The notes beneath the pieces are model-generated. The model ran no database searches, had not been told where the DNA came from, and saw only the letters and a program-made list of their open reading frames with translations. A DNA stretch of 49,335 nucleotides. It comes from a virus. Shown here one piece after another: positions 1 to 49,335 of the stretch. The position numbers were made by a program, and so were the translations under genes. Position 1 is the stretch's first letter; the number at the start of each line of letters is the position of its first letter. The DNA lies in the IMG/VR virus record IMGVR_UViG_3300045988_128238, positions 1-49,335 of that record; one strand, 5' to 3'.

Positions 1-55
1 AAAGAAGTGTCTCCATTCTTTTTCAACTCTATCCATTAGTCAGCACCTCTCAAAG
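1..55. repeat. Terminal overlap copy 1, identical to 49281-49335 (circular assembly closure)
   Basis: Exact 55/55 identity read directly. It contains the ATG and first 12 codons (MDRVEKEWRHFF) of the minus-strand gene 49005-49316. Confidence 0.95.
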
Positions 56-9344: not shown

Positions 9345-12300
9345 ATGCCATTAGATAAAAAATTTAAGGATGTACTATCTCTAAACTTTGGTAAGGATGA
9401 TGAAATCCATGTAGGTCTCTTGGCATCAAGTGGGCAGTTTAACAGTGGTACTATTACTCTTGATGAAATTGATGAGTATATTGAAGAATACAAGGATGAT
9501 TACAATGTATTCATGTGTTATGCTCCTATTGATGGAGAGGATAGGCTATTAGAAAATGCTAAACCTACTAGATTCCTTGTAGCTGATATTGATGGTGCTG
9601 AAATTCCTAAAGAGTTTCCACCTAGCTACTATTGGGAAACAAGCCCTAATAAGTACCAAGGTCTTTGGATAAGTGATAAAGTCATTGCACCTAAAGACTA
9701 TGAGGTGTTAGCTCATGCTATGGTTAAAAAATTTAAGTTTGATTCTGCTAGTGATATTGTTCACTTGTATAGGATTCCAACTACAATTAACCATAAGTAT
9801 GCTACACCACAAGAGGTATCAGAACCTAAAGGTGAAGGTACTGTATATCGTAGACAAGATATTTTTGAAATTCTTGAATATGATAAATACAAAAAAGGTA
9901 CTAAAAAGAAAAAGGTCAAAAAGAAGAAGATTCCTAACAAGGACTATAACCTTGAAGAGCTTTATAAAAAGTACGAAGTAAAACCTCTAGTAGATAGAGA
10001 AATTACTGACAGGAGTGCTTATGTATATGCTATTGCTAAAGCTCTGTATGAACAAGGTGCTAAGTCTTCTGAAGTCAAGTTTGTAGTTATGTCTACAGAC
10101 CAAGACAAGTGGGATAGAGATGAAATTGACAAGGTTCTATTAAGAATTAAGTCAAAGACTAAACGTAGAAAGAAACTTAGTAGTTCAGTTAATATTTCTG
10201 AAGATGAAGTACATATTATTGGTATCAATGATGTTAAAGAAGGTGAGCATGGTGAAGAATGGCTCATTGAAGGTCTTTGGGAATATGACTCAGTAGGGTT
10301 GATTGTAGCACCTCCTAAGAGCTACAAGTCAACTCTAATTACTAACATGGCTGTAGCTGTAGCTAGTGGTAAACCATTTGATGGTCGTAAGGTTATTCAA
10401 GGTGGTGTACTTATCTTGCAAGGTGAAAATAGTCTAGTAGCTGAAAAATCAAGATTGATGAACATTGCAGGAACTACAGATTTACCTATCTACTATGTTC
10501 AGTCAAGCATTAATCTTGATAATATTGAAGTTCTTAAACGAACTATCATTGAGAACAGTATCAAGATGCTTGTTATTGACCCTCTTTATCTCTTGTTTGG
10601 TAGTGGTAATATGAACCATCAAGTAGATGTTACACCTAAACTAAGAACTCTTAGTGAGCTTAGAAGAGAAACTGGATGTAGTATTATTCTTGTTCATCAC
10701 ACAAGAAAAACAGATGGTTCATCAGAATTATCTACAAGTGATATTAATGGTTCAGGATTCTTTGAAGGATGGTATGAGTCTTTAATTATGCTACAACCTC
10801 CTAGAAGAACTGTAGTACGAAAGGTTAAGATGTTTAATCGTTTCCGTAATCATATTGGCTCTGAAGGTACTATTAGAATTGATGATAACCTTAAAATGAC
10901 TCTAAACCTTGATGATGATTTTGGTAATGAATTTACTGAAGATAAACCTGATAAGCCTATTAATACTCGTAAAGAGAGATTGAAAAAGAAAAAAGCTAAG
11001 AAAGCTAAAAAGAAAGAGTCTGTAGTTGAAGTTGTGGAGGAAGAAACAAAGCCAAAAAAGCAGAAGGCTCTCAGAAGCTCTGAGAAGCGTTCTAAGCGTG
11101 TTAAACAGCCTACCTATACAACAACCCTAGAAACGTTTTACAAGCCATCAGAAGGCGAATTAGAGCGTTTTGAGAGTGGTATGACGATTGACCTTAGTAA
11201 TACTAAGAAAATCTATGTTGATATTGAAACTACAGGTCTCAATAATATCACTGATGAAATCAAGACAATTCAAATTACAGATGAGAGTGAAAACACTTAT
11301 GTACTTTGGGTTGATGGTAACTATGAAGAACTAGAATCTATTGCTAAGTTCTTGAATCAGTTTAAAATTATTACTCATGGTGGTAAGTTTGATAGTCTAT
11401 TCTTCTACAGAAAGTGTGGACTAGAGCTTAAACTCTTTGGTGATACTCAAATTCTTGCTCACATGCTTACAGAACCTAAACTTAAACTTAAGTACCTTGT
11501 CAAGAAATACCTTGGTATTGACTATGATATTGATAAGGAAACTAAGAAGTCTAATAAAAAGGTAACTGTAGCTAGTGTTAAGAAAGAACTTAAAGAGTGG
11601 GCTTTAGAAAATACTGAGCTTAAGAAACTTACACCATATAACAAAATGATTGAAGCTCTATATAATGACTTGGAAGGTAGTCTATTCTTAGATAAACCAC
11701 AGATGCTTATTAAGTTTGTAGATGATGGTACTGATTATGGTAAGGTACTTGATTACTACTCTAAGGTGTCTGAGCGTGTCCTGGAAGAAAGAAGAATGAC
11801 TCTTATTAAGTATGGTATGGGGGATACTGTATATGGATTCAGACTCTATAATTACCTATATCCTAAAGTTAAAGCTTATAAGCTACTTAAGGTCTATAGA
11901 CATGAGGTAAGAGCTTATAATGCCTATATTGAGGTAGAAAAAGAAGGGGTTACAATAGACTTTGGTTTATTGGGAGAGACCAGAGCTACAATAGAGACTG
12001 AGCTTAAAGAAGTAGAAAAAGAACTTTACTCTTTTGATATTGTTAAAGAAGCTAAAGTAGACAACTTTAACTCAGCTCAACAAAAGGTAAGACTATTCTG
12101 TGAGGTGTTAGGTTGGGAGACTAAACACATGACTAAAGGTGGACAACCACAAGTCAATCAATCCCAGTTAGAGGAATGGTCAAAAGAAGGAAAACATGAA
12201 ATACTAGATGTTTTGCTTAGATATAATAAGCTTACTAAACAACTACAGTTTGTTGATAAGTGGGAAGAATTATCACAATATGATGGTAAGCTACATCCAA

Positions 12301-13145
12301 GTTTTAACATAACTGCTGATACTGGAAGGACTACTTGTAAGAATCCTAACATCCAACAAGTGCCCCAGGAGTCAACACTTAGGAATGTAATTACATGTCC
12401 TAAAGGTAGAAAATTCATTGAAGTGGACATGTCACAAGCTGAGTTGCGTGTAGCTAGTATATTCTCTGAAGATGAAAACATGATACATGCTTATCAGTCA
12501 GGAAGTGACTTGCACCAAAAGACAATGGAATTAATTAAAGGTGGTAAGAAACCTAAGAACGACCAGGAAGCTAAGAGATGGCGTACTGAAGCCAAGTCAG
12601 CAAACTTTGGTCTTTTATATGGTATGTCAGCTAAGACTTATCAAGAGTATGCTAAAGGATATGGTATGAATATTACCTTAGAAGAAGCTGAAGACATCCG
12701 TGATGATTTCTTTAATTCATATCCAAGGCTACTAGATATGCATAAGAAGTTTGTAGAATATGCTAAGAAGTATGGGTATACTTATAGCCCTATTGGTCGT
12801 AAGAGATTCTTACCTAACCTTAAGAGCAAGAATTGGAAAGATGTTAGTGAAGCTGAAAGACAAGCTATTAACACACCTGTCCAAGGATTTGCAAGTGATT
12901 TAGTAATTAGTGCTTTAGCAGATATTCTTGAAGATGATTCACTAGATAAATCTAAGTATAAGATTATTGGCTCAGTACATGATGCCATTCTAGTTGAAGC
13001 AGATGAAGATGTTGCTGAAGAATACGCTAAGAAAGTAAAAGAACACATGGAGAATCCTAGTGTACTTGAAATCTGTGATATTGAAATTACAGTACCTCTT
13101 GTAGCTGATATTGAAATTGGCTCAGCTTGGGGTAAACATGATTAA
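9345..13145 (+). CDS. Fusion replicase: RepB'/prim-pol-like primase + RecA-fold (AAA_25/RepA-like) helicase + 3'-5' exonuclease + family A DNA polymerase
   Basis: Primase: FLVADIDG, ETSPNKYQGLW, RIPTTINHK. Helicase: APPKSYKST, LVIDPLY, ILVHHTRK. Exonuclease: DIETTGL, HGGKFD, YGMGD. Polymerase: DMSQAELR, RTEAKSANFGLLYG, VHDA. One uninterrupted 1266-aa ORF. Confidence 0.85.
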   Translation: MPLDKKFKDVLSLNFGKDDEIHVGLLASSGQFNSGTITLDEIDEYIEEYKDDYNVFMCYAPIDGEDRLLENAKPTRFLVADIDGAEIPKEFPPSYYWETSPNKYQGLWISDKVIAPKDYEVLAHAMVKKFKFDSASDIVHLYRIPTTINHKYATPQEVSEPKGEGTVYRRQDIFEILEYDKYKKGTKKKKVKKKKIPNKDYNLEELYKKYEVKPLVDREITDRSAYVYAIAKALYEQGAKSSEVKFVVMSTDQDKWDRDEIDKVLLRIKSKTKRRKKLSSSVNISEDEVHIIGINDVKEGEHGEEWLIEGLWEYDSVGLIVAPPKSYKSTLITNMAVAVASGKPFDGRKVIQGGVLILQGENSLVAEKSRLMNIAGTTDLPIYYVQSSINLDNIEVLKRTIIENSIKMLVIDPLYLLFGSGNMNHQVDVTPKLRTLSELRRETGCSIILVHHTRKTDGSSELSTSDINGSGFFEGWYESLIMLQPPRRTVVRKVKMFNRFRNHIGSEGTIRIDDNLKMTLNLDDDFGNEFTEDKPDKPINTRKERLKKKKAKKAKKKESVVEVVEEETKPKKQKALRSSEKRSKRVKQPTYTTTLETFYKPSEGELERFESGMTIDLSNTKKIYVDIETTGLNNITDEIKTIQITDESENTYVLWVDGNYEELESIAKFLNQFKIITHGGKFDSLFFYRKCGLELKLFGDTQILAHMLTEPKLKLKYLVKKYLGIDYDIDKETKKSNKKVTVASVKKELKEWALENTELKKLTPYNKMIEALYNDLEGSLFLDKPQMLIKFVDDGTDYGKVLDYYSKVSERVLEERRMTLIKYGMGDTVYGFRLYNYLYPKVKAYKLLKVYRHEVRAYNAYIEVEKEGVTIDFGLLGETRATIETELKEVEKELYSFDIVKEAKVDNFNSAQQKVRLFCEVLGWETKHMTKGGQPQVNQSQLEEWSKEGKHEILDVLLRYNKLTKQLQFVDKWEELSQYDGKLHPSFNITADTGRTTCKNPNIQQVPQESTLRNVITCPKGRKFIEVDMSQAELRVASIFSEDENMIHAYQSGSDLHQKTMELIKGGKKPKNDQEAKRWRTEAKSANFGLLYGMSAKTYQEYAKGYGMNITLEEAEDIRDDFFNSYPRLLDMHKKFVEYAKKYGYTYSPIGRKRFLPNLKSKNWKDVSEAERQAINTPVQGFASDLVISALADILEDDSLDKSKYKIIGSVHDAILVEADEDVAEEYAKKVKEHMENPSVLEICDIEITVPLVADIEIGSAWGKHD

Positions 13146-15617: not shown

Positions 15618-16058
15618 CTATTTCCAGAATCTGTAAGCAGTCCAACTGTTAATACTAAACTCACCTAGAAATTCTAGTGACTTAAAGTCTGTTGATTCTT
15701 CAGGTAACTGATTACCATATTCATCAAAGTTATAGACTTTAGCACCATCATTAGCATAAGAGAAAGAGTTATAGTCAGTAATAACAGCTACATCCTTCTT
15801 AGGTTGCCATAGTCTAGTTACAGTACCATCATTATTCTTTGTTTCACTAACAAAGTTATAGACTCTGTAGTTATCAAAGTAAGTAAGGAAAGCACCACTT
15901 GTAGAACGATTAATCACTCTACCATCATTACTGTTAGAGTTATAACCATATCTATTATACCTAGTGTCAGGGTTATAGTTACTTGTTACACTTGCATGAG
16001 CTACAGTAGCTACACCAAGGGCAAGTAAAACAGTTAGAGTAGCAATTAGTTTCTTCAT
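15618..16058 (-). CDS. Secreted protein with Sec signal peptide (146 aa)
   Basis: MKKLIATLTVLLALGVATVAHA/SV, with a GAGGGG SD. It begins 2 nt after the endolysin stop. Confidence 0.7.
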   Translation of the reverse strand: MKKLIATLTVLLALGVATVAHASVTSNYNPDTRYNRYGYNSNSNDGRVINRSTSGAFLTYFDNYRVYNFVSETKNNDGTVTRLWQPKKDVAVITDYNSFSYANDGAKVYNFDEYGNQLPEESTDFKSLEFLGEFSINSWTAYRFWK

Positions 16059-16060
16059 TA

Positions 16061-18373
16061 TTACCCCTCGTTTGATACTTCCAAGTTACCTTTAATAGTA
16101 ACTTTACCAAGAGCATCTTGTACTGATGTAGCTTTAATCTTTTCAATAGCTTCTACCACTTTAGCATTTGCATCACTAATAGCTTGTTTAATCTCTTGTG
16201 CATCTCTTGATTGACTATCAATAAATCTACCAAAGTCAGCATCAGGAAGGTTAAGGTGTTTAGCTCCTGCATTTTGTAGTTGGAATACAGTTTCCATATC
16301 ACCAATACCGAATACTCTACCGTTAACTACAGCTACATAACCACTATCACCAGTTTGATTTCTTACTACAAAGTTCATATCTTCATCCTCTTCTTCAATA
16401 CTAGATGATGTTACTTCATCATCAATCAATACAATGTTTTTATCTAGTCCACCTGCAATACCAGTAGAAGTAAACTGCCACCATCTCATGTGTTCCATAT
16501 CAGGATATACACCCCAGTAAGGAGTAGGTGTTACTTCATAGTTAGGATATCCTGCAATCCATAGACTATTAGGATACTTAGCAGTAACTTGGTCAATATA
16601 GACATTTGCTAGTGTATAAGGCTTGTAGCTATAGTAAATAGGTTCAAAGCCTGCTTGTTTACACTTATCCATAAAGGCAATTACAGCATCAGTGTTAGCT
16701 TGTACATTACCACTAGCACTATCTTCATAGTCACATACTAAGTATCTAGGCTTACTTGGTAGATTGTTAATAAAGAAGTCAGCTTCAGCTTGTGCTAAAC
16801 CTACATCTCCACCGAATCTAGCAAAGTGATAATAACCTACACAATTACTTGTATTAGTTTGTTGTGTAGCTACAGGACTTAACCATCCAACACCCTCAGA
16901 TACCTTAATAATAGTATTTCTAGTACCACTAGCATTACAAATATCTGTTAGGTCTCCTGGTTGGTATGCAGATACATCAATGAAGTAATCATCTTTTTTA
17001 AGACCACTAGCTACAGAAGATGGTTCTGAGCTGTTAGTGACTACTGCAGTATTGTTAGCTGATTTAGGTCTAAAGGCAGTAGCAAATGTAGCTGAGTAAG
17101 GAAGAGCTACAATGTTGAATACTCCACCACCATTAGTATTCTTTTGTTCTCCACCTTGGTTTTGACCTAGAAAGTTACCGTATCCATTACCTGCATCACT
17201 GTCAAAGATAGCTACATGTGAATAAGGTGTTGAAGGTGTAACATCAAAGATAGCTACATCTCCTGCTTGCATTACTTCAACTTCATCAAAGTAGTTAAGA
17301 ATACCATTGCTATGTCTTTGAGTCCATAGGTCTTGTGCATAACCACTGTCAGTACAGTTGATTATAGGATAACCAAGATATTTACAGTATTCTGCAAAAC
17401 CATCCCAACAATTATGATGAAGTTGATTATCAGCATAGTAACTGTGGTCTCCATCAGTATTTAGAACATAAATAGTATCTTCACCAATTTCTTCTAGAGA
17501 AATAAAGTTATTAATTAAGTTCCTCTTTTTATTTACTGATAGTTTCCATATTGGTTTAGGATTGTCTGTAAAGTTTGTAGCTTCTCTATCGTGTCTCTTA
17601 CTAAGGCAAGCAGAAATACCGTTAATATGACATCCATGTTGTAAAGTAACAAGTAATTGTTTATTTACTGAGTAACCTACAGTGGTATTAGAACCCTTCT
17701 TATCGTGTCCATCTGCCTTAAGGTAACCTTCAATGATAAGTAAATACTGTTCCTTAGTGAATACATCTGTAAGTTCTTTATTACTAAAGTCTTGGATAAC
17801 TTTAAGTAATTCAGGATGGAATCTTACCTGTAGGTTTACAATATCTGCCTTACCATTTGAGTGTTTATGTGAGGTACAATTTACATTTAAGTTTTCTAAG
17901 TAACCTAGTTTATCATCAGTACCTACAGTGATGAATACTGTTGATGTTTTTGAGTTTTTCCATCTTTTTCTTACACTACCATCACCCAACCAGAAACCAA
18001 AGAATCTAAGTTCATCATCTGTAAGGTCATATACCTTATCTGATTCACTAAGGTCTAAGGCAATACTATCACCTTGCTTAAGCTCAGTAACAGGTTTATA
18101 AGTACCGTCCTTAAGGAATACCTTATGGTCTTTAGTTACTTTAAACCAACCCTGAGAAGTGTTTAACCAGTACACTGTAGATTGTTTAGGCTCATTACTA
18201 ACTACAGTGTTTCCTGTGGAAAGTACATCACCTTCAACAATATCTTTTACTAGCTTATAACTACCATCCTTTAGCTTTACAAGATATTCTCCTGTAAGAC
18301 ATTGGTCTCCGAACCAACCATCAAGGTCATAACCATTACCAAGGTGAGTATTTTTAAAGTCTTGATAACTCAT
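16061..18373 (-). CDS. Endolysin: intein-interrupted CHAP + GH25 muramidase + C-terminal wall-binding domain
   Basis: CHAP: GYDLDGWFGDQ[intein]CWDGFAEYCKYLG ... SHVAIF. GH25: IDVSAYQ, IIKVSEG, GYYHFARF, LVCDYED. Confidence 0.85.
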   Translation of the reverse strand: MSYQDFKNTHLGNGYDLDGWFGDQCLTGEYLVKLKDGSYKLVKDIVEGDVLSTGNTVVSNEPKQSTVYWLNTSQGWFKVTKDHKVFLKDGTYKPVTELKQGDSIALDLSESDKVYDLTDDELRFFGFWLGDGSVRKRWKNSKTSTVFITVGTDDKLGYLENLNVNCTSHKHSNGKADIVNLQVRFHPELLKVIQDFSNKELTDVFTKEQYLLIIEGYLKADGHDKKGSNTTVGYSVNKQLLVTLQHGCHINGISACLSKRHDREATNFTDNPKPIWKLSVNKKRNLINNFISLEEIGEDTIYVLNTDGDHSYYADNQLHHNCWDGFAEYCKYLGYPIINCTDSGYAQDLWTQRHSNGILNYFDEVEVMQAGDVAIFDVTPSTPYSHVAIFDSDAGNGYGNFLGQNQGGEQKNTNGGGVFNIVALPYSATFATAFRPKSANNTAVVTNSSEPSSVASGLKKDDYFIDVSAYQPGDLTDICNASGTRNTIIKVSEGVGWLSPVATQQTNTSNCVGYYHFARFGGDVGLAQAEADFFINNLPSKPRYLVCDYEDSASGNVQANTDAVIAFMDKCKQAGFEPIYYSYKPYTLANVYIDQVTAKYPNSLWIAGYPNYEVTPTPYWGVYPDMEHMRWWQFTSTGIAGGLDKNIVLIDDEVTSSSIEEEDEDMNFVVRNQTGDSGYVAVVNGRVFGIGDMETVFQLQNAGAKHLNLPDADFGRFIDSQSRDAQEIKQAISDANAKVVEAIEKIKATSVQDALGKVTIKGNLEVSNEG
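17411..18301 (-). mobile_element. Class 1 intein (297 aa) with LAGLIDADG homing endonuclease
   Basis: Cys1 (CLTGEYLV), block B TKDH, LAGLIDADG motifs FFGFWLGDGS and IIEGYLKADG, C-terminal LHHN followed by +1 Cys. Confidence 0.85.
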
Positions 18374-19017: not shown

Positions 19018-19980
19018 CTACTTACCTTCTTCTTTAGGTTTAGTGTCCTCTTCTTTTTTCTTCTTCTCTTCCTCTTCTTTTTGCTTGCGTTCAGCAATCT
19101 TTTCATCAGACCAATCACAAGCTCCACAAAGTACATTACAAGGGTCAGTAGGTAGACCAATGTTAGGGTTGTGGTTAATATACTGAGCTGTAATACTACT
19201 TCTAGTAGGTGCATATACCCACTCATCAAGTGTAGATAGCATCTTAAGAACATCAGATGAACCACCTTCAGGCTTCAAGTCAAACTCTCTATTGTAATCA
19301 AGAGTTCTGTTGATATCTTGTTCAAAAGACTGGCCAGGGTCATAAGCTTTTTGATAGATAACATTATCATTAATATCATAGATAGTGAATCTACCATTGT
19401 GATGAGTAGTAGGTGCTTTATTGACATACTTAATTCTATCAACCTTAATACCAGTAATCTTAGCATGGATAGAACCATCTTTGTTAGGTGTGTAGCTGTG
19501 AATAACTTTACCATAAACATTACCAACACCTACTTCACCAGTGTCTACCATGTTCCATACAATAGTAAAGTTACCATTAGTATCAGTTTTAACTACACTA
19601 TAAGTTTGTCCACCACCTGTTTCAACTACAGTAGTGTTAGACTTCATAGATAGTTCTACTTTGTCACTAAGCTTACCAATTAGGAAGTCTACAAGAGCAT
19701 TTAGTTTCTTTTCATGACAGTTAGCTACAGCACATAGGTTATTTACACGCTTATCTAAGTTAACTACCATAATAAGTAAGTCTCTTAGGAAACACCATAG
19801 AAAGTAAGCATACTGAGCAAGTCTCTTAGGTAGTCCTACACAAGATGTATTTGCTAGTAAACAAGCATAGTCTTTTAAGACCTTAAGCTTCTTCTCCATT
19901 ACATCTTGTCTTTGTTCTACTTCTACACAGACATCAATCTTTTCACATTGACAGTCTCCACATTGTCCTAGACAAGACAT
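19018..19980 (-). CDS. Cys-rich-N-terminus tail fibre/receptor-binding protein (320 aa)
   Basis: The N-terminal 65 aa are paralogous to those of 19980-21542. Located in the distal tail module. Confidence 0.5.
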   Translation of the reverse strand: MSCLGQCGDCQCEKIDVCVEVEQRQDVMEKKLKVLKDYACLLANTSCVGLPKRLAQYAYFLWCFLRDLLIMVVNLDKRVNNLCAVANCHEKKLNALVDFLIGKLSDKVELSMKSNTTVVETGGGQTYSVVKTDTNGNFTIVWNMVDTGEVGVGNVYGKVIHSYTPNKDGSIHAKITGIKVDRIKYVNKAPTTHHNGRFTIYDINDNVIYQKAYDPGQSFEQDINRTLDYNREFDLKPEGGSSDVLKMLSTLDEWVYAPTRSSITAQYINHNPNIGLPTDPCNVLCGACDWSDEKIAERKQKEEEEKKKKEEDTKPKEEGK

Positions 19981-21542
19981 TATTTACCTCCAGTTAATTC
20001 TTTAGGTACAGGTGTTAAGTCTCCACAAGTAACACTAATAGCTTTAACCTCAAAGAGTTGTGGTTCTTCAGGTCTAGTAGGCTTAATAGGCTCTGTAGGC
20101 TTAGTTCCTGTAGGTTGTGTAGGTCTAATAGGTTCTGTTACTGTAGGCTCACTAGGTCTAACAGGTTCAGTCTGAGTAGGTCTAGTTGGTTCTACAGGTT
20201 TATTACCGTTAGGAGCTACAGGTTCTGTAGGTCTTTCTGGTACAACTACAGTCTTCTTAGTAGGTTCTTTAGGTCTACCTTCCAAAGAAATAGTAGGAGC
20301 AGTAATCTTAAGTGATACTTTATTGTGAGAACCTTCTACCCACAAGTCATCATATAACAAGAAATCAATGGTTTGGGACTGTCCTTGACTGATATTAATA
20401 TCATGAGATAGAGGATAAGTAACATCTAAGGCTTGTGTAAATGCTGATTGTCCTCTATATGATTTAGACCAGATAACAGCTCCATTAGGTTTCTTGTAAG
20501 TAATACTAAAGTCTGAGAAAGCTACTTTAGGAGATACCTTATCATAGCTAACCTCTTGAATAGTAACACTGTTAGCTTTAATATTAACACCACCAGTAAT
20601 ACCACTGTATGTAGCATTAAAGCCTACCTTACCTCTAAGAACCCAATAACCAATATTTTCAGTACCGTCAAAGATAGGAGACTTAATAGTAAAGTTACCA
20701 GTATTCTTATCAAATGTGTATTCATCAGGAAGGTCAGCACCAGTATTGTCTAACTCTGAGAACTCAAAAGTATAACCAATATTACCTACAAGAGATGATT
20801 CCCACTGCTTAATAGCTTTGTTGTATTCAGCAATAGCTGTCTGATAGTCAGATTCAGCCTTCTCAGCCTCTCTAAGCTTGTCATTGTATTCCTTAAGCTT
20901 TCTATCATACTCAGCCTTAAGACGTGCATAGTCGCTGTTAGAAGCGTTATATGATGCCATATCTTTGTTATACTTCTCTACAGCTTTAGTATACTCAGCC
21001 ATTACTTTTCTATAAGCTTCTAAGTCAGTGTTATATTTAGCAAGAGCTGTAGTATAATCACTTCTTAGCTTATCATAGTTAGCTTTGTCTTTTTCATACT
21101 GAGCTACAGCATCCTCATAGTCTTTGTTAGCTTTATTAAAGCTTGCTAGACCATCTTGATAGAGCTTGTAGTTCCTATTGTAAGTCTCCATAGCTTCATT
21201 GTATAAAGCTAGTTTAGTGTTATATTCGTTGAGAATCCTAGAGTTTTCTTTGTTAGCAGTAAGTTGTTTTTCTACTTCTACAGCTAAGTCTGAAATCTTT
21301 CTACAAAGCTCTTCATCACGCTTCTTAAACACTGTAAGGTCTAACTCTTGTTGCATCCTAAGAATATCTCTTAAGATACACCATAGCATGTAGAACCCTT
21401 TAGATAAGATTCTAGGAAGGTCAATACAGTTAGCGTTAGCAATAACACATACCAAGTCATGAAGGACTCTTAGCTTGTCTTCAATGTCTTTTTTATTTTT
21501 AGCTTCAATACATTCACAATCATTGCATCCAGTACAAGCCAT
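19980..21542 (-). CDS. Tail fibre/adhesin-like protein: Cys-rich N-domain, Tyr-heptad helix, beta domain, Pro-rich tract (520 aa)
   Basis: See findings. Domain boundaries were counted by hand. Confidence 0.55.
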   Translation of the reverse strand: MACTGCNDCECIEAKNKKDIEDKLRVLHDLVCVIANANCIDLPRILSKGFYMLWCILRDILRMQQELDLTVFKKRDEELCRKISDLAVEVEKQLTANKENSRILNEYNTKLALYNEAMETYNRNYKLYQDGLASFNKANKDYEDAVAQYEKDKANYDKLRSDYTTALAKYNTDLEAYRKVMAEYTKAVEKYNKDMASYNASNSDYARLKAEYDRKLKEYNDKLREAEKAESDYQTAIAEYNKAIKQWESSLVGNIGYTFEFSELDNTGADLPDEYTFDKNTGNFTIKSPIFDGTENIGYWVLRGKVGFNATYSGITGGVNIKANSVTIQEVSYDKVSPKVAFSDFSITYKKPNGAVIWSKSYRGQSAFTQALDVTYPLSHDINISQGQSQTIDFLLYDDLWVEGSHNKVSLKITAPTISLEGRPKEPTKKTVVVPERPTEPVAPNGNKPVEPTRPTQTEPVRPSEPTVTEPIRPTQPTGTKPTEPIKPTRPEEPQLFEVKAISVTCGDLTPVPKELTGGK

Positions 21543-24410: not shown

Positions 24411-26585
24411 CTAATTTAAGTGGTTGTACTTAAGATAAGTTCTTAAGATTACATCTGCTTGCATTGAACCTGTAATTTCTACTAGATGTTCACCACTTCT
24501 AAAGATTTTCTTTTGTTGTTCTTCAGTTAGTGCTGTAGCTCCTAACATAACATCATAACCGTGGTTAGGTTTATCATCTGGGAATACTGAGTATTTATCA
24601 ATCCATTTACCATCATATTGAGCTTTAAACATTGGTGTAAAGTCAATACCATCAATCTTAACCTTGATGTCTCCTGCAAACTTAGCTACATAGTTTCTAG
24701 TAAGAGAGCCATCAGTATTACCAATACTCTTACCACCTGCTACTTCAGGAGGATAGATAAGATGTCTACCACCACTGAGCATATCATCCATAGTTCTTTG
24801 TCTCTCAACTACAAACCTTTGTCCTGATACATTCTGCTCTAGTGTTGTTACTGTGTCACCATTAATAGCTTTGATAACACCTGTGTGACCATAAGGACTA
24901 TACTGATTAGTTTCAGTAAAGATAGCTCCTACCTTCATAGCTTCCCTAGATGTAGGTACTACTTTCCATCCTACTGCTCCCCAATCATAACCAACACCAA
25001 TGTTACTAGCTGATAGTGTATCACCTATGGCATGAGTAATACCAGTAATACCACCACCAAGACCTACACCGCCTAGTTTCATTGAGTACCAAGCTACAAG
25101 ACCGTAACACTCACCATTACCTAGTGTAGTACCTTTAAGTGAGTCTAGCTCACCAAGTACCTTCATGGTTTCTGTAGCTGTCTGTACCTCTCCTGTAGCT
25201 CCATTAGGTTCACCACTACTAGCAGTACCAACAATACCTCCAAAGTCAGACATTCCTGAACCTCTATTGTTGTTACCATCTGATTGTCCTCCACCACCTG
25301 ATGAGTGGAATACAGTACCCATAGTCATACTATCAGTAGGCTTAAATGAGATGTGAACATGGTCTCCGTGGTTCTGAGTCTTATTACCTCTGTCAGGCAT
25401 TAAGCTCCACACCCTAGCAGGTCCATAGATATTATTGACATTCATGAAGAACTTCTGACCCCATATTACATAGTCAATATTTAATTCATCCATGTTCTCA
25501 ATAACAAACCCTGCAATAGTATCTCCTAGCCTATAGTTATCATTAGTCATGAAGTCTACTGCTAGTGATTGGTCAGGTTGGTGACCAGGATAGGTAATGA
25601 ATTGTTCTTCAGGAGTATTAGTAGCAATAGCTATAGCTCTTTTAACCCTAGCTACATGTGGTTGCCAAGCTCCTGTAGCTCCATCCCAATGGCTTCTAAT
25701 AATGTCTCCAAAGGCATTACCATCAATCAAGTCATAGTATCCATTAGAACCATCTGAAGCATTTGTAGGTTGAAGTAACTGTGCATCAATCTTATCAAGT
25801 ATATTATCATTGTTTGAGTTAATACCTGACCTTACATCATTTGCTAAAGAGTAGTAAGAAGCGTACCCTGCGGCAGCATAGTCAAACAAAGCTCCACCAA
25901 CTTGAAATAGTCCTTTTATGAACTCATCAAATGTAGTTTTACCTTGGACATTATACATCTTTTGGTTGTTACCTGCAGTTTGTTCAGCTAGCAAATACAT
26001 GTAGTCAATAAGGAAGTCATCTACAGAAGCGAAGTGCATATATGTACCACCTTCATTAGATGGTCTAGCACTACCTGTAGTAACTACAACACCTGAAGGT
26101 CTAGTTCCTGCTGTACCAGTAATACCACCCCAGTTATTATCTGCTTTAGCTACTGCTGAGTTACCCCAGTTAGACTCAATATAAAGTTGAACAATGACAC
26201 CTGAAGGAAGTAGATTATACTTAGCACATCCATCAAGGATAGTTTGTACTAAGCTTGCAGGAAGTGTATTACCACCATAAGTAATATCACCACCAGTATA
26301 CTTCTTATCACCACCAAAGGCTGAGCCTTTAGTAGAACCACCTTCTTTAAGTCCTGTCTTTACTCCATATGGTCTAACAATGATTTTAAACCACCAATGA
26401 GCAAACTTGTCAAAGTCATAAGATATAGAAGTATAAAACTGAGCAGGAACATTACTTGTCATTACTGATTGATACTCAATACCATGCAAGTCAGTTACTG
26501 AGAACCTTCTTTGAAATCCTTGTCTCTTCCATCTCTCTGTAGATGAATTGACAGCATTTAAAAGCTTCTGTGCTTCTGTCTGCAT
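24411..26585 (-). CDS. Tail-associated lysin: GH73 glucosaminidase + His-x-His module + CHAP
   Basis: GH73: VQLYIESNWGNS...NNWGGI. Middle module: NHGDHVHISF. CHAP: GNGECYGLVAWY ... YGHTGVI. Confidence 0.75.
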   Translation of the reverse strand: MQTEAQKLLNAVNSSTERWKRQGFQRRFSVTDLHGIEYQSVMTSNVPAQFYTSISYDFDKFAHWWFKIIVRPYGVKTGLKEGGSTKGSAFGGDKKYTGGDITYGGNTLPASLVQTILDGCAKYNLLPSGVIVQLYIESNWGNSAVAKADNNWGGITGTAGTRPSGVVVTTGSARPSNEGGTYMHFASVDDFLIDYMYLLAEQTAGNNQKMYNVQGKTTFDEFIKGLFQVGGALFDYAAAGYASYYSLANDVRSGINSNNDNILDKIDAQLLQPTNASDGSNGYYDLIDGNAFGDIIRSHWDGATGAWQPHVARVKRAIAIATNTPEEQFITYPGHQPDQSLAVDFMTNDNYRLGDTIAGFVIENMDELNIDYVIWGQKFFMNVNNIYGPARVWSLMPDRGNKTQNHGDHVHISFKPTDSMTMGTVFHSSGGGGQSDGNNNRGSGMSDFGGIVGTASSGEPNGATGEVQTATETMKVLGELDSLKGTTLGNGECYGLVAWYSMKLGGVGLGGGITGITHAIGDTLSASNIGVGYDWGAVGWKVVPTSREAMKVGAIFTETNQYSPYGHTGVIKAINGDTVTTLEQNVSGQRFVVERQRTMDDMLSGGRHLIYPPEVAGGKSIGNTDGSLTRNYVAKFAGDIKVKIDGIDFTPMFKAQYDGKWIDKYSVFPDDKPNHGYDVMLGATALTEEQQKKIFRSGEHLVEITGSMQADVILRTYLKYNHLN

Positions 26586-43486: not shown

Positions 43487-44817
43487 AATTCCCCCTCTAA
43501 TAAGTGTTTATTAAGATAAGCTTTAGCTTCTTCTTCATAACCTGCTTCATGAATACGTTCAAAGGTCTGAGACATGAAATTATCTTTTTCATAGTCATAA
43601 TAATCTTTAGTTTCTTGGTTTTTGAATCTAAAGGTGTAACCTTCATAACCCATGAGCCTAATTACTTCAGTAAGCTTAACTGCAATCTTATCTCTCCAAG
43701 GAATAACCTTGTGAATGATGAAAGTCTTAATGACTTCATCCTTACCAATGTTACCAGTACCTGCATCTAAGTCAAATACCTGTGGTGATACACCATAAAT
43801 TTGACATGAGAAGCGTGTAGCATGGATTGATAAGAGATTTAGGTAATCACTAGGTTTAGAATCCCTAGTCAACTGTTCCATATCACTGAAAATGTCAGAA
43901 TAAATGATAGAGTCATTATACTCTACATTGGCTAGCATGTCTGCTAGTGCTTTTACGTTGTCTTTTCTGACATCTTCGTTGAATACAGCGTTAGAGTTAC
44001 TTGTATCAAAGATTTTAGCTGAAGTTGATGGGTTTCCTTCATTCTTCATCTTAGCAAGCATTGATTCATTGTGTTTAAATGCCAATGTACCAACACCATT
44101 ACGTTGAAAATCATGAATAAAGTAATCTAGGAGCTGAAGAATAAGATGAGTACGCTTTTTATCATTCTCAAATGGACTAACACCAATGAATGAACCATCC
44201 ATAGTGATATTTGTGAAGTCTTCTGAGGTTAAAGCTACAGAATCCTTGTCATTTGAGACAATATTACCTTCATCATCAATATAGAATCTATCATCTACCA
44301 CTTCTTCAGAAGCTCGAATCCAAGTATGCTTACGATTCAAGCAATGAAACCTTCTCAAAATGTAGATGAAAGGCATGTAAACAAGTGGAATTTCTTCGGA
44401 TTCTCTAAAAATGATGTCATAAGAGTTCTTAGGAACAATCATAATACTATCTTTATGACCATTGTGAGTTTGTTTTGCAGGAATCTTTCTTACACCTACA
44501 GCACCTTGCTCAAATAACTCTCTTGTGAGCTGTTTAAACATGTCCATAACTGTAATTCCTTGGATATTTTGTGAATCTAGCATATCTCTGAGAGTTTCAC
44601 CCTCTATAGAGCTATCTTCATCCTTAACAAGCTCCATATCACCTGCAAAGATGTAGTCAACAATACCTTCAAGAATAGTGTTAATACCTGGCATATTTGT
44701 TACTAGGTACTGAACTTGTTCATAGGTAAGTGTATCATCCATCTCATTTAGCTGTGAAGGAATCCCTATATTGTCTTTAATAAGGAGTTCATAGCCAGTT
44801 TTTCTATCAATTTCCAC
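43483..44817 (-). CDS. Portal protein (444 aa)
   Basis: Immediately downstream of terL, and the size fits. Confidence 0.65.
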   Translation of the reverse strand: MEIDRKTGYELLIKDNIGIPSQLNEMDDTLTYEQVQYLVTNMPGINTILEGIVDYIFAGDMELVKDEDSSIEGETLRDMLDSQNIQGITVMDMFKQLTRELFEQGAVGVRKIPAKQTHNGHKDSIMIVPKNSYDIIFRESEEIPLVYMPFIYILRRFHCLNRKHTWIRASEEVVDDRFYIDDEGNIVSNDKDSVALTSEDFTNITMDGSFIGVSPFENDKKRTHLILQLLDYFIHDFQRNGVGTLAFKHNESMLAKMKNEGNPSTSAKIFDTSNSNAVFNEDVRKDNVKALADMLANVEYNDSIIYSDIFSDMEQLTRDSKPSDYLNLLSIHATRFSCQIYGVSPQVFDLDAGTGNIGKDEVIKTFIIHKVIPWRDKIAVKLTEVIRLMGYEGYTFRFKNQETKDYYDYEKDNFMSQTFERIHEAGYEEEAKAYLNKHLLEGEL

Positions 44818-46418
44818 TAATTACCTCCTTCTACACCAAGTATATATAGTTCTAAAGCATGAACAGCTAGAATAACAGCATCTAGGTCGTCAGGAGACCT
44901 CTTCAGTACTTGTCTAATGACATCTTTACCGATTAGGGTAACTTTATCAAGCTCTTTATTTTTGAGCTGTATAGCTCTCATTTGAGTCAATAGAGTTTCC
45001 TTAATTTCAGAAGCAAACACAACTTTATTCTCTTGCATAAGCTGTCTTAGGACTAAGTGCATCTCTGCTCTTCTATTTCTAGCCATTAAAGCAGTATCTA
45101 CATGACTTGCTACCTTCTCAGGTGTAGGTCTTCCACCAAAATCAATAGGATATATGGTAACCCTATCAAATGTAGGTCTATTCATCATCTCTACAATCAA
45201 GTGAGAACCTTGACCTGTATCAATAGCAAGTGATACTACATTGTACTTCATAACTACTTGCTCTATACCGTCTACAATTTCTCTTGTAGACCTTGCATCA
45301 GACCATTCATCAGGTCTTAAGTTGATGGTATCTGTTACCCTTACAAGGGCATCCTTATCAGTGTCATACATAGATAAAGCAAGTGTAATACCATCTGAAC
45401 CTTTATAGGCTGAGTCAATTCCTAGAGCTGATATAGTGCGTGGTGAGATACTACTAATATCATGTCTAGGAGCTACAATCATTGGAGCATTGAAGAACTC
45501 TGAGCTATTTTCATCATACTCACAAAGCAAGTTGATTCTTATAGACTCTTCAGTTCTAGCAAAGTCAGAAGCTAACACCTCTTCAGGAGTCATTTTAATT
45601 GAGTCTGATTCCATTGAAGTAACTATGTTACCCCATATAACAAACTCATCATCCTTCAGATTAGGGTTAGTAACAGATTCATGGAAGTGATTTAAGAAAC
45701 GAGGGTTACTAATACCAAAAAGGATAAGTGATTCTCCATCATCTCTTTCAAACTCACGTCTACCAAGCTCTGTCAAGGCACGTTCTGAGATAAAGTCCAT
45801 TTCATCAATAAGAACATGAGAACCTTCACCAATGTTTTCATCTGAGTCCATACTAGAGAAGGTATCACCTGTAGATTTAGTATCAATCTTGTTACCATTC
45901 TTAAAGACAATCCTAGACTTACTATAAGCTGTCTCAGACCGTCCTAGGAGCTTGTCAGCCTTGCTTATGGAAGCCTTGGACTCTTCTACCAACATGTTCT
46001 TCATGTCGATACTAGCCCCTCTTAGATGCCTTCTAGCGTGTTCCATAACCTTAGCTGTTCTTGATGATTTAGATGCAACTACAGATACACTGTAGCTGTG
46101 CATTGCTAAATAGTTAGCTAAAGCTCCCATGATAAATGATTTACCAAACCTTGGAGGTTCAATCATGTAACCAGTATGATAGTCACCAGATATTAAAGCT
46201 CCAATAGCTAAAGCTTGGTCAAAGTTGAGTTCTATATTCATTTCAGCTAAGAACTCTGTATAACCTAGTTTAGCATAATGTAATCTTTTCTCAATAGGTA
46301 TTGAGTTTCTGATGTAAGAGTCAGGATGTGGTATATACCCCTTTAACCAAGGTAATAACTCACTTTTAGGATGGACTTCACCAAGTTTTAGTACAAGTCT
46401 ATCCCTCAGTTTCCCCAT
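44817..46418 (-). CDS. terL: Terminase large subunit
   Basis: Walker A PPRFGKS, Walker B VLIDEMDF, and the nuclease-half segment LGIDSAYKGSDG. Confidence 0.85.
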   Translation of the reverse strand: MGKLRDRLVLKLGEVHPKSELLPWLKGYIPHPDSYIRNSIPIEKRLHYAKLGYTEFLAEMNIELNFDQALAIGALISGDYHTGYMIEPPRFGKSFIMGALANYLAMHSYSVSVVASKSSRTAKVMEHARRHLRGASIDMKNMLVEESKASISKADKLLGRSETAYSKSRIVFKNGNKIDTKSTGDTFSSMDSDENIGEGSHVLIDEMDFISERALTELGRREFERDDGESLILFGISNPRFLNHFHESVTNPNLKDDEFVIWGNIVTSMESDSIKMTPEEVLASDFARTEESIRINLLCEYDENSSEFFNAPMIVAPRHDISSISPRTISALGIDSAYKGSDGITLALSMYDTDKDALVRVTDTINLRPDEWSDARSTREIVDGIEQVVMKYNVVSLAIDTGQGSHLIVEMMNRPTFDRVTIYPIDFGGRPTPEKVASHVDTALMARNRRAEMHLVLRQLMQENKVVFASEIKETLLTQMRAIQLKNKELDKVTLIGKDVIRQVLKRSPDDLDAVILAVHALELYILGVEGGN

Positions 46419-47000: not shown

Positions 47001-47072
47001 TAGTTCCACCAGGAATCGAACCTGGAGTAGAGGTTTAGAAGACCTCTGTGTTATCCGTTACACCATAGAACC
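47001..47072 (-). tRNA. tRNA-Arg (anticodon UCU)
   Basis: Hand-folded cloverleaf: acceptor GGUUCUA/UGGAACU, anticodon stem GAGGU/ACCUC with loop CUUCUAA, T arm CCAGG-UUCGAUU-CCUGG. No encoded CCA. Confidence 0.85.
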
Positions 47073-47235: not shown

Positions 47236-47306
<71 letters not shown>

Positions 47307-49024: not shown

Positions 49025-49316
49025 CCTTCATAGTAAACTTCCTTTGCACATCTACAGGAAGTAAACTTAATACCTCTTTCTTCATAGCATTAATCTCCCT
49101 GTAGCTAAGCCTATCATGTTCATCCCATCTCTTCTTAACTACAGAACGGTATTTATTATACTCATCTATAAGACCATAAGCCTTTAAATAGTCAATCATA
49201 ATAGCTAAAGTACCTAAATACTTACCCCAACCTAAGTGATGTCCTTTAGTAGATACACCATTAAACTTACTTTGTTGTGTAAAGAAGTGTCTCCATTCTT
49301 TTTCAACTCTATCCAT
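49005..49316 (-). CDS. Hypothetical protein (103 aa)
   Basis: ORF. Its start lies in the 55-bp overlap and is translationally coupled to gene 36-248 across the circular junction. Confidence 0.6.
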   Translation of the reverse strand: MDRVEKEWRHFFTQQSKFNGVSTKGHHLGWGKYLGTLAIMIDYLKAYGLIDEYNKYRSVVKKRWDEHDRLSYREINAMKKEVLSLLPVDVQRKFTMKDGTFTR

Positions 49317-49335
49317 TAGTCAGCACCTCTCAAAG
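49281..49335. repeat. Terminal overlap copy 2, identical to 1-55
   Basis: Exact identity. Confidence 0.95.

Follow-up and report, generated by a model that had tools for sequence, protein, structure and literature searches.

An intein interrupts the active site of an endolysin encoded by the uncultured phage of IMG/VR virus record IMGVR_UViG_3300045988_128238. The stretch analyzed here, called the window below, covers positions 1 to 49,335 of that record. Its endolysin gene specifies a precursor of 770 amino acids in which a block of 297 residues separates Gln24 from the catalytic cysteine of a CHAP domain, and a GH25 domain follows. In all likelihood this block is a canonical selfish class-1 homing intein, competent for splicing, and the LAGLIDADG homing endonuclease embedded in it is probably active. 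The phage genome has a size of about 49 kb, and the hosts are probably streptococci. The positions of the features are given in Table 1.

Exact Insertion Relative to Natural Intein-Free Alleles

When the protein spliced in silico was used as the query, dozens of natural alleles of 472–474 amino acids devoid of the insert were recovered, with 96–97% identity, together with further alleles of 747–772 amino acids that contain it. The intein-less allele L002 comes from a contig of 49,349 bp showing synteny with the window across the genes for the holin, the lysin, a 146-aa open reading frame (ORF), RuvC and the DNA polymerase. The two lysin genes differ by exactly 891 bp, between the CAA codon of Gln24 and the TGT codon of the cysteine. 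On both sides of the insertion point the DNA is identical, over 23 nucleotides upstream and 57 nucleotides downstream. Since a natural allele differs by precisely this block, the insert is not due to chance. The characterised B30 lysin of S. agalactiae also spans the splice junction without a gap (GSFGAQCWDGYADYCKYLG).

The identical 770-aa protein was present on five contigs. The cluster to which it belongs at 90% identity holds 493 member sequences, intein-containing and intein-free ones being mixed. Dozens of independent assemblies, drawn from ENA, Logan and IMG/VR, had homologous inteins at this very codon, and about 13 IMG/VR contigs carried the lysin intein. Exact-match scans of IMG/VR for the junctions returned three empty sites and no filled one; these scans are sensitive to polymorphism and give no measure of allele frequency. 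A word-indexed protein search with the intein alone yielded five proteins and missed close 770-aa alleles, and it was the searches with the spliced exteins and with an exhaustive profile that found the relatives.

Intein Motifs and Predicted Fold

A first-pass annotation of the window, made from the sequence, had described the insert as a LAGLIDADG intein with a Cys1, a TKDH block B, two LAGLIDADG motifs, blocks F and G with a final LHHN, and a +1 cysteine. Each of these elements was found in its place. The block F motif (IYVLNTDGDHSYYA) covers residues 301–314 and LHHN residues 318–321. In an alignment of 13 representative inteins showing 61–94% identity to that of the window (A1), Cys1, the Asp-His of block B, FFGFWLGDG, ADG, HHN and the +1 Cys were all invariant. 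Searched with the isolated insert, the Pfam profile LAGLIDADG_3 gave 25.7 bits, above its cut-off of 22.5. At the level of the sequence, the assignment to the LAGLIDADG-type class-1 inteins is supported.

A phmmer search of the intein against the PDB returned nothing significant. The AF2 model of the intein had a predicted local distance difference test (pLDDT) score of 76. Foldseek matched this model to PI-SceI (E = 7e-11), and PI-SceI, PI-PfuI and PI-TkoII aligned to it along the whole chain. The Hint part matched the Ssp, Mch and Npu DnaB mini-inteins, with E-values from 2e-4 to 5e-4, and the endonuclease part matched I-DmoI (E = 6e-6, TM 0.56 normalised to the target). The insert is thereby predicted to have a Hint fold, and its endonuclease part the alpha-beta-beta-alpha-beta-beta-alpha pseudo-dimer fold of the LAGLIDADG family.

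Table 1. Location of the endolysin gene, its intein and the adjacent holin gene in the window.
Feature	Position	Strand	Observation
Endolysin precursor gene	16061..18373	-	770 aa, 85.5 kDa; ORF list and Pfam
N-extein, aa 1-24, MSYQDFKNTHLGNGYDLDGWFGDQ	18302..18373	-	First half of the CHAP calcium loop (D16, D18) and Q24
Intein, residues 25-321, 297 aa, 33.7 kDa	17411..18301	-	Hint domain with inserted LAGLIDADG homing endonuclease
Intein Cys1 (Cys25, block A nucleophile; start of CLTGEYLVKL)	18299..18301	-	A1 alignment
Block B TKDH, residues 80-83 (T80, H83)	18125..18136	-	Context GWFKVTKDHKVF matches the block B pattern
First LAGLIDADG motif FFGFWLGDGS, residues 124-133, catalytic Asp131	17975..18004	-	
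Second LAGLIDADG motif IIEGYLKADG, residues 213-222, catalytic Asp221	17708..17737	-	
Blocks F and G, IYVLNTDGDHSYYADNQLHHN; penultimate His320, terminal Asn321	17411..17473	-	
+1 Cys, Cys322 of the precursor, Cys25 of the spliced lysin	17408..17410	-	Splice-junction nucleophile and CHAP catalytic cysteine
C-extein part of CHAP, aa 322-435	17069..17410	-	Calcium ligand D324; catalytic His386 at 17216..17218
GH25 muramidase domain, aa 465-642	16448..16981	-	Pfam PF01183, 87.6 bits, 1.6e-24
C-terminal region, aa 643-770	16064..16447	-	Acidic linker and conserved module
Dp-1-family holin, 69 aa	18373..18582	-	PF16938 on identical neighbours in L002, L003 and L004

Reconstitution of the CHAP Domain

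According to the first-pass annotation, the intein was inserted immediately before the CHAP nucleophile, the +1 splice nucleophile and the catalytic cysteine being the same residue, and its removal recreated the domain. The comparisons bear out both points. The spliced region reached 30.2 bits with the Pfam CHAP profile (cut-off 26), versus 24.7 bits for the unspliced precursor. A profile of 35 spliced exteins matched solved CHAP domains with E-values ranging from 1.5e-24 (6IST) to 1.6e-21 (LysK, 4CSH), and the alignments to the solved endolysin domains were continuous across the splice junction. A junction that failed to align as one domain, which would have refuted the first-pass annotation, was thus not observed. 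Among the same 35 regions, 30 matched Pfam CHAP, and the only invariant columns corresponded to the +1 Cys and to one His, His386. The AF2 model of the intein-less CHAP domain was obtained from a shallow alignment and had a pLDDT of 36; the membership of the spliced region in the CHAP family rests on the profiles.

The register to 4CSH places D16, D18, Q24, C322, D324 and H386 of the precursor on D45, D47, Q53, C54, D56 and H117 of LysK, the +1 Cys thus falling on Cys54. In LysK, C54 and H117 are catalytic, as their alanine mutants are inactive, and D45, D47 and D56 bind a structural calcium (PMC4126393). This register implies that the intein parts the nucleophile from the preceding residue, and two of the calcium ligands from the third. 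In the B30 lysin, the +1 Cys corresponds to Cys26. There are strong grounds to expect that the CHAP domain would be inactive in the precursor.

Proposed Cycle of the Intein

We propose that translation of the lysin, coupled to that of the Dp-1-type holin gene, yields an 85.5-kDa precursor whose CHAP calcium loop and active site would be split by the 297 residues (D16-x-D18...Q24↓C322-x-D324, the arrow marking the insertion point). Self-excision would proceed by an N-S acyl shift at Cys25, trans-thioesterification to Cys322, cyclisation of Asn321 and an S-N shift. The products would be a 51.8-kDa lysin, laid out like the natural intein-free alleles, and a free 33.7-kDa endonuclease. These calculated masses are in line with the 85, 52 and 33 kDa of the first-pass annotation. 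During co-infection, the endonuclease would cut intein-free alleles at the empty site, around GGTTGGTTCGGAGACCAA↓TGTTGGGATGG, and recombinational repair would then copy the intein into the cut allele. In this model the element is primarily selfish, and it would persist because no codon of the CHAP domain is better conserved or harder to delete than the one it occupies. The sequences themselves show the exact boundaries of the insert, the restored CHAP domain, the conservation of all the catalytic residues for splicing and for the endonuclease, the purifying selection and the presence/absence polymorphism; splicing, cleavage by the endonuclease and inactivity of CHAP in the precursor are inferred.

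Mobility, Selection and Decay

A neighbour-joining tree was built from 91 alleles of this lysin, either spliced or free of the intein, and the 15 intein-containing ones were distributed over about nine separate places in it. For most of them the nearest neighbour was an intein-free allele, at 97–99% identity. Presence/absence polymorphism was observed in at least four lysin lineages, including those with alleles of 747/450, 761/465 and roughly 745/446 amino acids. By the Nei-Gojobori method, the ratio of nonsynonymous to synonymous substitutions (dN/dS) was 0.14–0.15 for the intein, 0.14–0.24 for the CHAP exteins (computed on intein-containing alleles) and 0.11–0.14 for the rest of the lysin. 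The value for the intein indicates that all of it, the endonuclease included, is kept by selection and is not decaying. The dS values were similar in the intein and in the exteins.

Two disrupted variants were present in related contigs. In P0005 (L006 3001–4128 and L007 716–1843, from at least two samples), an in-frame deletion of 1191 bp, equivalent to positions 17012..18202 of the window, was bounded by imperfect 11-nt repeats (CTGTAGYTAGT). Intein residues 34–297 and the remaining CHAP are gone, Cys1 is changed to Gly, and a GH25-only lysin is left. In P0004 (L031 3001–5315; on four contigs of about 49 kb), the deletion of a single nucleotide in the endonuclease domain, AAA to AA at nucleotide 516 of the gene, splits the lysin into ORFs of 178 and 404 amino acids, the downstream frame being otherwise intact. 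This frameshift reflects either a mutation of recent date or a sequencing error that recurred. The variants suggest that loss of the CHAP half is survivable in a bifunctional lysin. Inteins normally occupy indispensable sites, and for this reason the apparent survival of such a loss is unusual.

Weighing of the Alternative Explanations

Several observations speak against a canonical, maintained homing intein. In block F, inspected by eye, Val is found at the usual F:4 Asp (YVL versus YDL), so that the block F/G hallmark of the first-pass annotation stands as to the motif and its His and falls short as to the Asp. On the isolated insert, Pfam Intein_splicing gave 26.8 bits (E = 5e-6), below the cut-off of 35.8, and NCBIfam intein_Nterm gave 14.2, below the cut-off of 24.5; significant scores under the cut-off point to a divergent intein family. 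The last 12 residues of the AF2 intein model were of low confidence. The similar dS values, with the inteins broadly tracking extein subclades, are explained equally well by frequent homing and by long vertical residence combined with repeated precise loss. Finally, the disrupted variants P0004 and P0005 mean that the upkeep of the intein is not absolute. The low scores of the curated models, together with the contigs in which CHAP was lost and GH25 kept (by the 1191-bp deletion or the 1-nt frameshift), which suggest that CHAP can be dispensable, could be taken as the signs of a decaying, non-splicing Hint/LAGLIDADG remnant, with a permanently dead CHAP and lysis by GH25 alone. We regard this as very improbable. 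The splicing residues of the window intein are all intact, the dN/dS of the intein (0.14) and of the CHAP exteins (0.14–0.24) corresponds to purifying selection, and all the intein-containing lysins retain the CHAP Cys and His without exception. Furthermore, the homologous B30 lysin relies on its CHAP domain for lysis, according to the title of Donovan et al. 2006 given in PMC9378833. An artefact of assembly, that is, a chimeric metagenomic contig, might be suspected from the metagenome-style assembly and from a 55-bp terminal overlap typical of a k-mer assembler. It is hardly conceivable given the five contigs with an identical protein, the 493-member cluster, the intact reading frame and the homologous inteins at the same codon in dozens of independent assemblies; these many contigs effectively refute a chimera. 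Two further candidates were rejected. A group I intron is excluded, as the frame is open throughout, and the Rfam matches in the window were limited to two tRNAs. The canonical HN↓C terminus, together with the inserted endonuclease, excludes a bacterial intein-like (BIL) or a cleavage-only Hint domain.

The first-pass annotation had also raised the idea that redox-sensitive splicing adds a timer to lysis. In a broader form, the intein would be a domesticated switch, in which redox state (through a Cys1/Cys+1 disulfide), temperature, pH or a metal sets the splicing rate, delays or gates the activation of CHAP, and tunes lysis timing or protects the producing cell. Cys1 and Cys+1 are indeed both thiols, and with its catalytic site and calcium loop disrupted CHAP should be off before splicing. 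Conditional splicing is documented for other inteins, for example that of Pho RadA (PMC4513877 and PMC5790916). The strong purifying selection on the intein and the conservation of the insertion site across very diverse lysins are also compatible with a switch. However, intein-free alleles with 97–99% identity are common in the same lineages, and apparently commoner than intein-containing ones, from which it follows that the intein is dispensable for a working lysis programme. The retained catalytic residues of the endonuclease are the signature of a mobile selfish element and not of a domesticated one. In addition, it is normally the holin that determines when an endolysin acts, and the Dp-1-type holin next to this lysin is intact. 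The timer and the redox idea are speculation and a required regulatory role is unlikely; a domesticated switch has, in our opinion, only a small chance of being correct. We give an equally slender chance to the more general proposal that the inteins at the CHAP site are more than parasites, their splicing being conditional (blocked, for example, by a Cys1-Cys+1 disulfide, by missing calcium or by the folding state of the exteins) and CHAP becoming active only under defined conditions. A selfish homing intein which splices at the CHAP cysteine is the explanation that we retain.

Organization of the Precursor and of the Lysis Cassette

The precursor is composed of the 24-aa N-extein, the 297-aa intein, and a C-extein that comprises the remaining CHAP, the GH25 domain and the C-terminal region. 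Pfam applied to the whole precursor detected GH25, CHAP at residues 319–405 (the C-terminal three quarters of the domain), LAGLIDADG_3 at residues 208–267 and Intein_splicing. The C-terminal region (residues 643–770) had no Pfam match; it is conserved in all close alleles and is presumed to bind the cell wall. The statement of the first-pass annotation that the GH25 domain is unaffected by the intein is plausible.

The stop codon of the holin gene overlaps the start codon of the lysin gene (TAATG), and the two genes therefore form a lysis cassette. Directly downstream of the lysin gene, at positions 15618..16058 (minus strand), is an ORF for a 146-aa protein with a signal-like N-terminus. Its position is kept in all the related contigs (L002, L003, L006, L007 and L031), and the protein may be a further component of the lysis cassette.

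A Family of Inteins at the CHAP Site

In total, 33 intein-containing lysins were collected, with 23 unique inteins showing 59–99% pairwise identity, all located at Q↓C...HN↓C(W/F)D. An exhaustive profile search among 1.84 billion representative proteins returned 209 matches, 46 of which were below 1e-10. In the 34 best full-length clusters, the intein occupies a single site, D-x-D-G-x-Y-G-x-Q↓C...HN↓C-x-D, and this in lysins with 20–46% identity, and at most 50% to each other. The only invariant residues in the full-length alignment of the 34 clusters (A4) were the block B His, the terminal Asn, the +1 Cys and the CHAP His; the D-G of the first LAGLIDADG motif was nearly invariant.

Residue 1 of the intein was Cys in 28 of these distant clusters, Ser in three (P0205, P0210 and P0241) and Ala in three (P0218, P0219 and P0226, with AQPAGT or AHRLGT). 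The C-terminal HN was replaced by QN or EN in P0202 and P0203. Members with such non-canonical termini could be class-3-like or splicing-impaired variants. On the improbable reading that these inteins are more than parasites, the Ser1, Ala1 and non-HN members may have drifted towards cleavage-only or regulatory roles.

The domains associated with CHAP in the lysins of the family were GH25, Amidase_2, Glucosaminidase, DUF5648, ChW, CW_7 and dockerin, architectures typical of the lysins of Gram-positive hosts. Weaker matches of the profile were inteins of C5 DNA methyltransferases, placed immediately ahead of the PC-motif catalytic Cys (P0230, P0231, P0233, P0237, P0244 and P0247), and of large terminase subunits (P0238, P0239, P0243 and P0246). 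The insertion before a catalytic or P-loop-adjacent residue is the theme common to these relatives.

Comparison with Known Systems

Inteins are textbook residents of enzymes that handle nucleic acids and ATP. Among 7.7 million PMC articles and the bioRxiv preprints, a corpus with most subscription-journal papers outside it, no natural intein was found in an endolysin, a lysin, a CHAP domain or a peptidoglycan hydrolase. A tblastn search of the intein against deposited phages detected no related lysin intein; the only match, a weak one, was the intein in the helicase of Lactobacillus phage Lb338-1. At the DNA level, neither the lysin gene nor a 25-kb portion of the window matched any of 50,697 deposited phages by megablast. 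A scan of the GTDB representative genomes with the intein profile found no relative, and hence no prophage that would point to a host. The literature and deposited-phage searches thus agree with the opinion, expressed in the first-pass annotation, that an intein in an endolysin active site had not been described. In IMG, the exact protein bears the automatic name "GH25 family lysozyme M1/intein/homing endonuclease". Machine annotation had therefore already flagged that there is an intein, but neither its position nor its family. The newness lies in the class of the host protein and in the size of the undescribed family, and not in the mechanism.

PI-SceI (the yeast VMA1 intein) and PI-PfuI are the best structural matches of the window intein, yet their sequences are only 12–15% identical to it. 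All three have a Hint domain interrupted by a two-motif LAGLIDADG endonuclease, Cys1, a TxxH block B, a C-terminal HN and a +1 Cys, and the same homing cycle is expected. The window intein is shorter, 297 residues compared to about 450, and its block F is without the F:4 Asp. Its host is a peptidoglycan hydrolase, whereas the hosts of the PI-SceI/PI-PfuI type are ATPases, polymerases or ribonucleotide reductases (RNR). The phage inteins of TerL, DNA methylases, primase, helicase and portal (PMC5050341) are likewise mobile and inserted at catalytic motifs. In the survey of Kelley et al. 2016 (PMC5050341), all the hosts of the phage inteins in the set bind nucleic acid; the host of the window intein is a lysis enzyme acting on the cell wall. 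Among the 224 LysA genes of mycobacteriophages covered by Payne and Hatfull, none was reported to have an intein.

The closest biological precedent is found in the group I introns of Streptococcus thermophilus phage lysin genes (Foley et al. 2000, as cited in PMC3952083), which have homing endonucleases and are also homing elements with presence/absence polymorphism among related phages. Those introns leave at the RNA level, and no precursor of the lysin protein is ever made, whereas the window element would leave at the protein level, and it is the active site itself that is split. Among lysins, the bifunctional streptococcal endolysin B30/PlyGBS (CHAP endopeptidase and GH25 muramidase) is about 61% identical to the exteins and has the same order of CHAP then GH25. 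It differs by having no intein and an SH3b at its end, in place of the unrelated C-terminal module of the window lysin. With LysK CHAPK (4CSH), the Cys54/His117 dyad and the loop D45-x-D47...Q53-C54-x-D56 align position by position with the spliced CHAP, although sequence identity is low and LysK is without an intein.

Other Features of the Phage Genome

An exact 55-bp direct repeat was observed at the window ends (1..55 and 49281..49335). Assemblers run at k = 55 typically leave such a repeat on circular contigs, and the window therefore probably represents the whole of the phage genome, about 49.28 kb long. The contigs with the same lysin measure 49.3–49.4 kb.

A 724-aa tail-associated lysin is encoded at positions 24411..26585 (minus strand). 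It contains a glucosaminidase and a second CHAP domain of a different subtype (GNGECYGLV) with no intein, so that the virion includes a CHAP domain free of any intein. Two adjacent genes (19018..19980 and 19980..21542, minus strand), in the interval that separates the tail genes from the lysis cassette, specify proteins that resemble each other in their Cys-rich N-termini (MSCLGQCGDCQCEK and MACTGCNDCECIE) and have BspA_v-like regions. The larger protein also contains a long coiled-coil and, towards its C-terminus, a Pro/Thr-rich repeat. This pair may correspond to receptor-binding proteins. In a 1266-aa fusion protein (9345..13145, plus strand), a 3'-5' exonuclease and a family A DNA polymerase are combined with an N-terminal part that is AAA_25/primase-like. 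Neither in this polymerase fusion nor in the 533-aa large terminase (44817..46418) was an intein detected. Two phage tRNAs, tRNA-Arg (TCT) and tRNA-Cys (GCA), are located on the minus strand at 47001..47072 and 47236..47306.

Significance

The endolysin genes of this type, when mined, appear 300 amino acids too long and score below the CHAP threshold until they are spliced in silico. Such lysins may be mis-annotated, or be expressed as inactive precursors. The intein of the window is also a small (297 aa) natural Cys/Cys intein, predicted to work in the extein context Q↓C-W-D, which could serve to build conditionally active lysins. The natural pairs of intein-containing and intein-free alleles, with 97–99% identity, are suited to experiments on homing and on fitness.

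A well-populated family of inteins, so far encountered only in metagenomes, is located at the catalytic cysteine of the CHAP domain of phage lysins. It constitutes a counter-example to the pattern, reported for the set of Kelley et al. 2016, that phage intein hosts bind nucleic acid, and it extends the known range of intein insertion sites. If splicing in this family were conditional, which we consider unlikely, it would provide control at the protein level over lysis, or over lysis from without by the released lysin.

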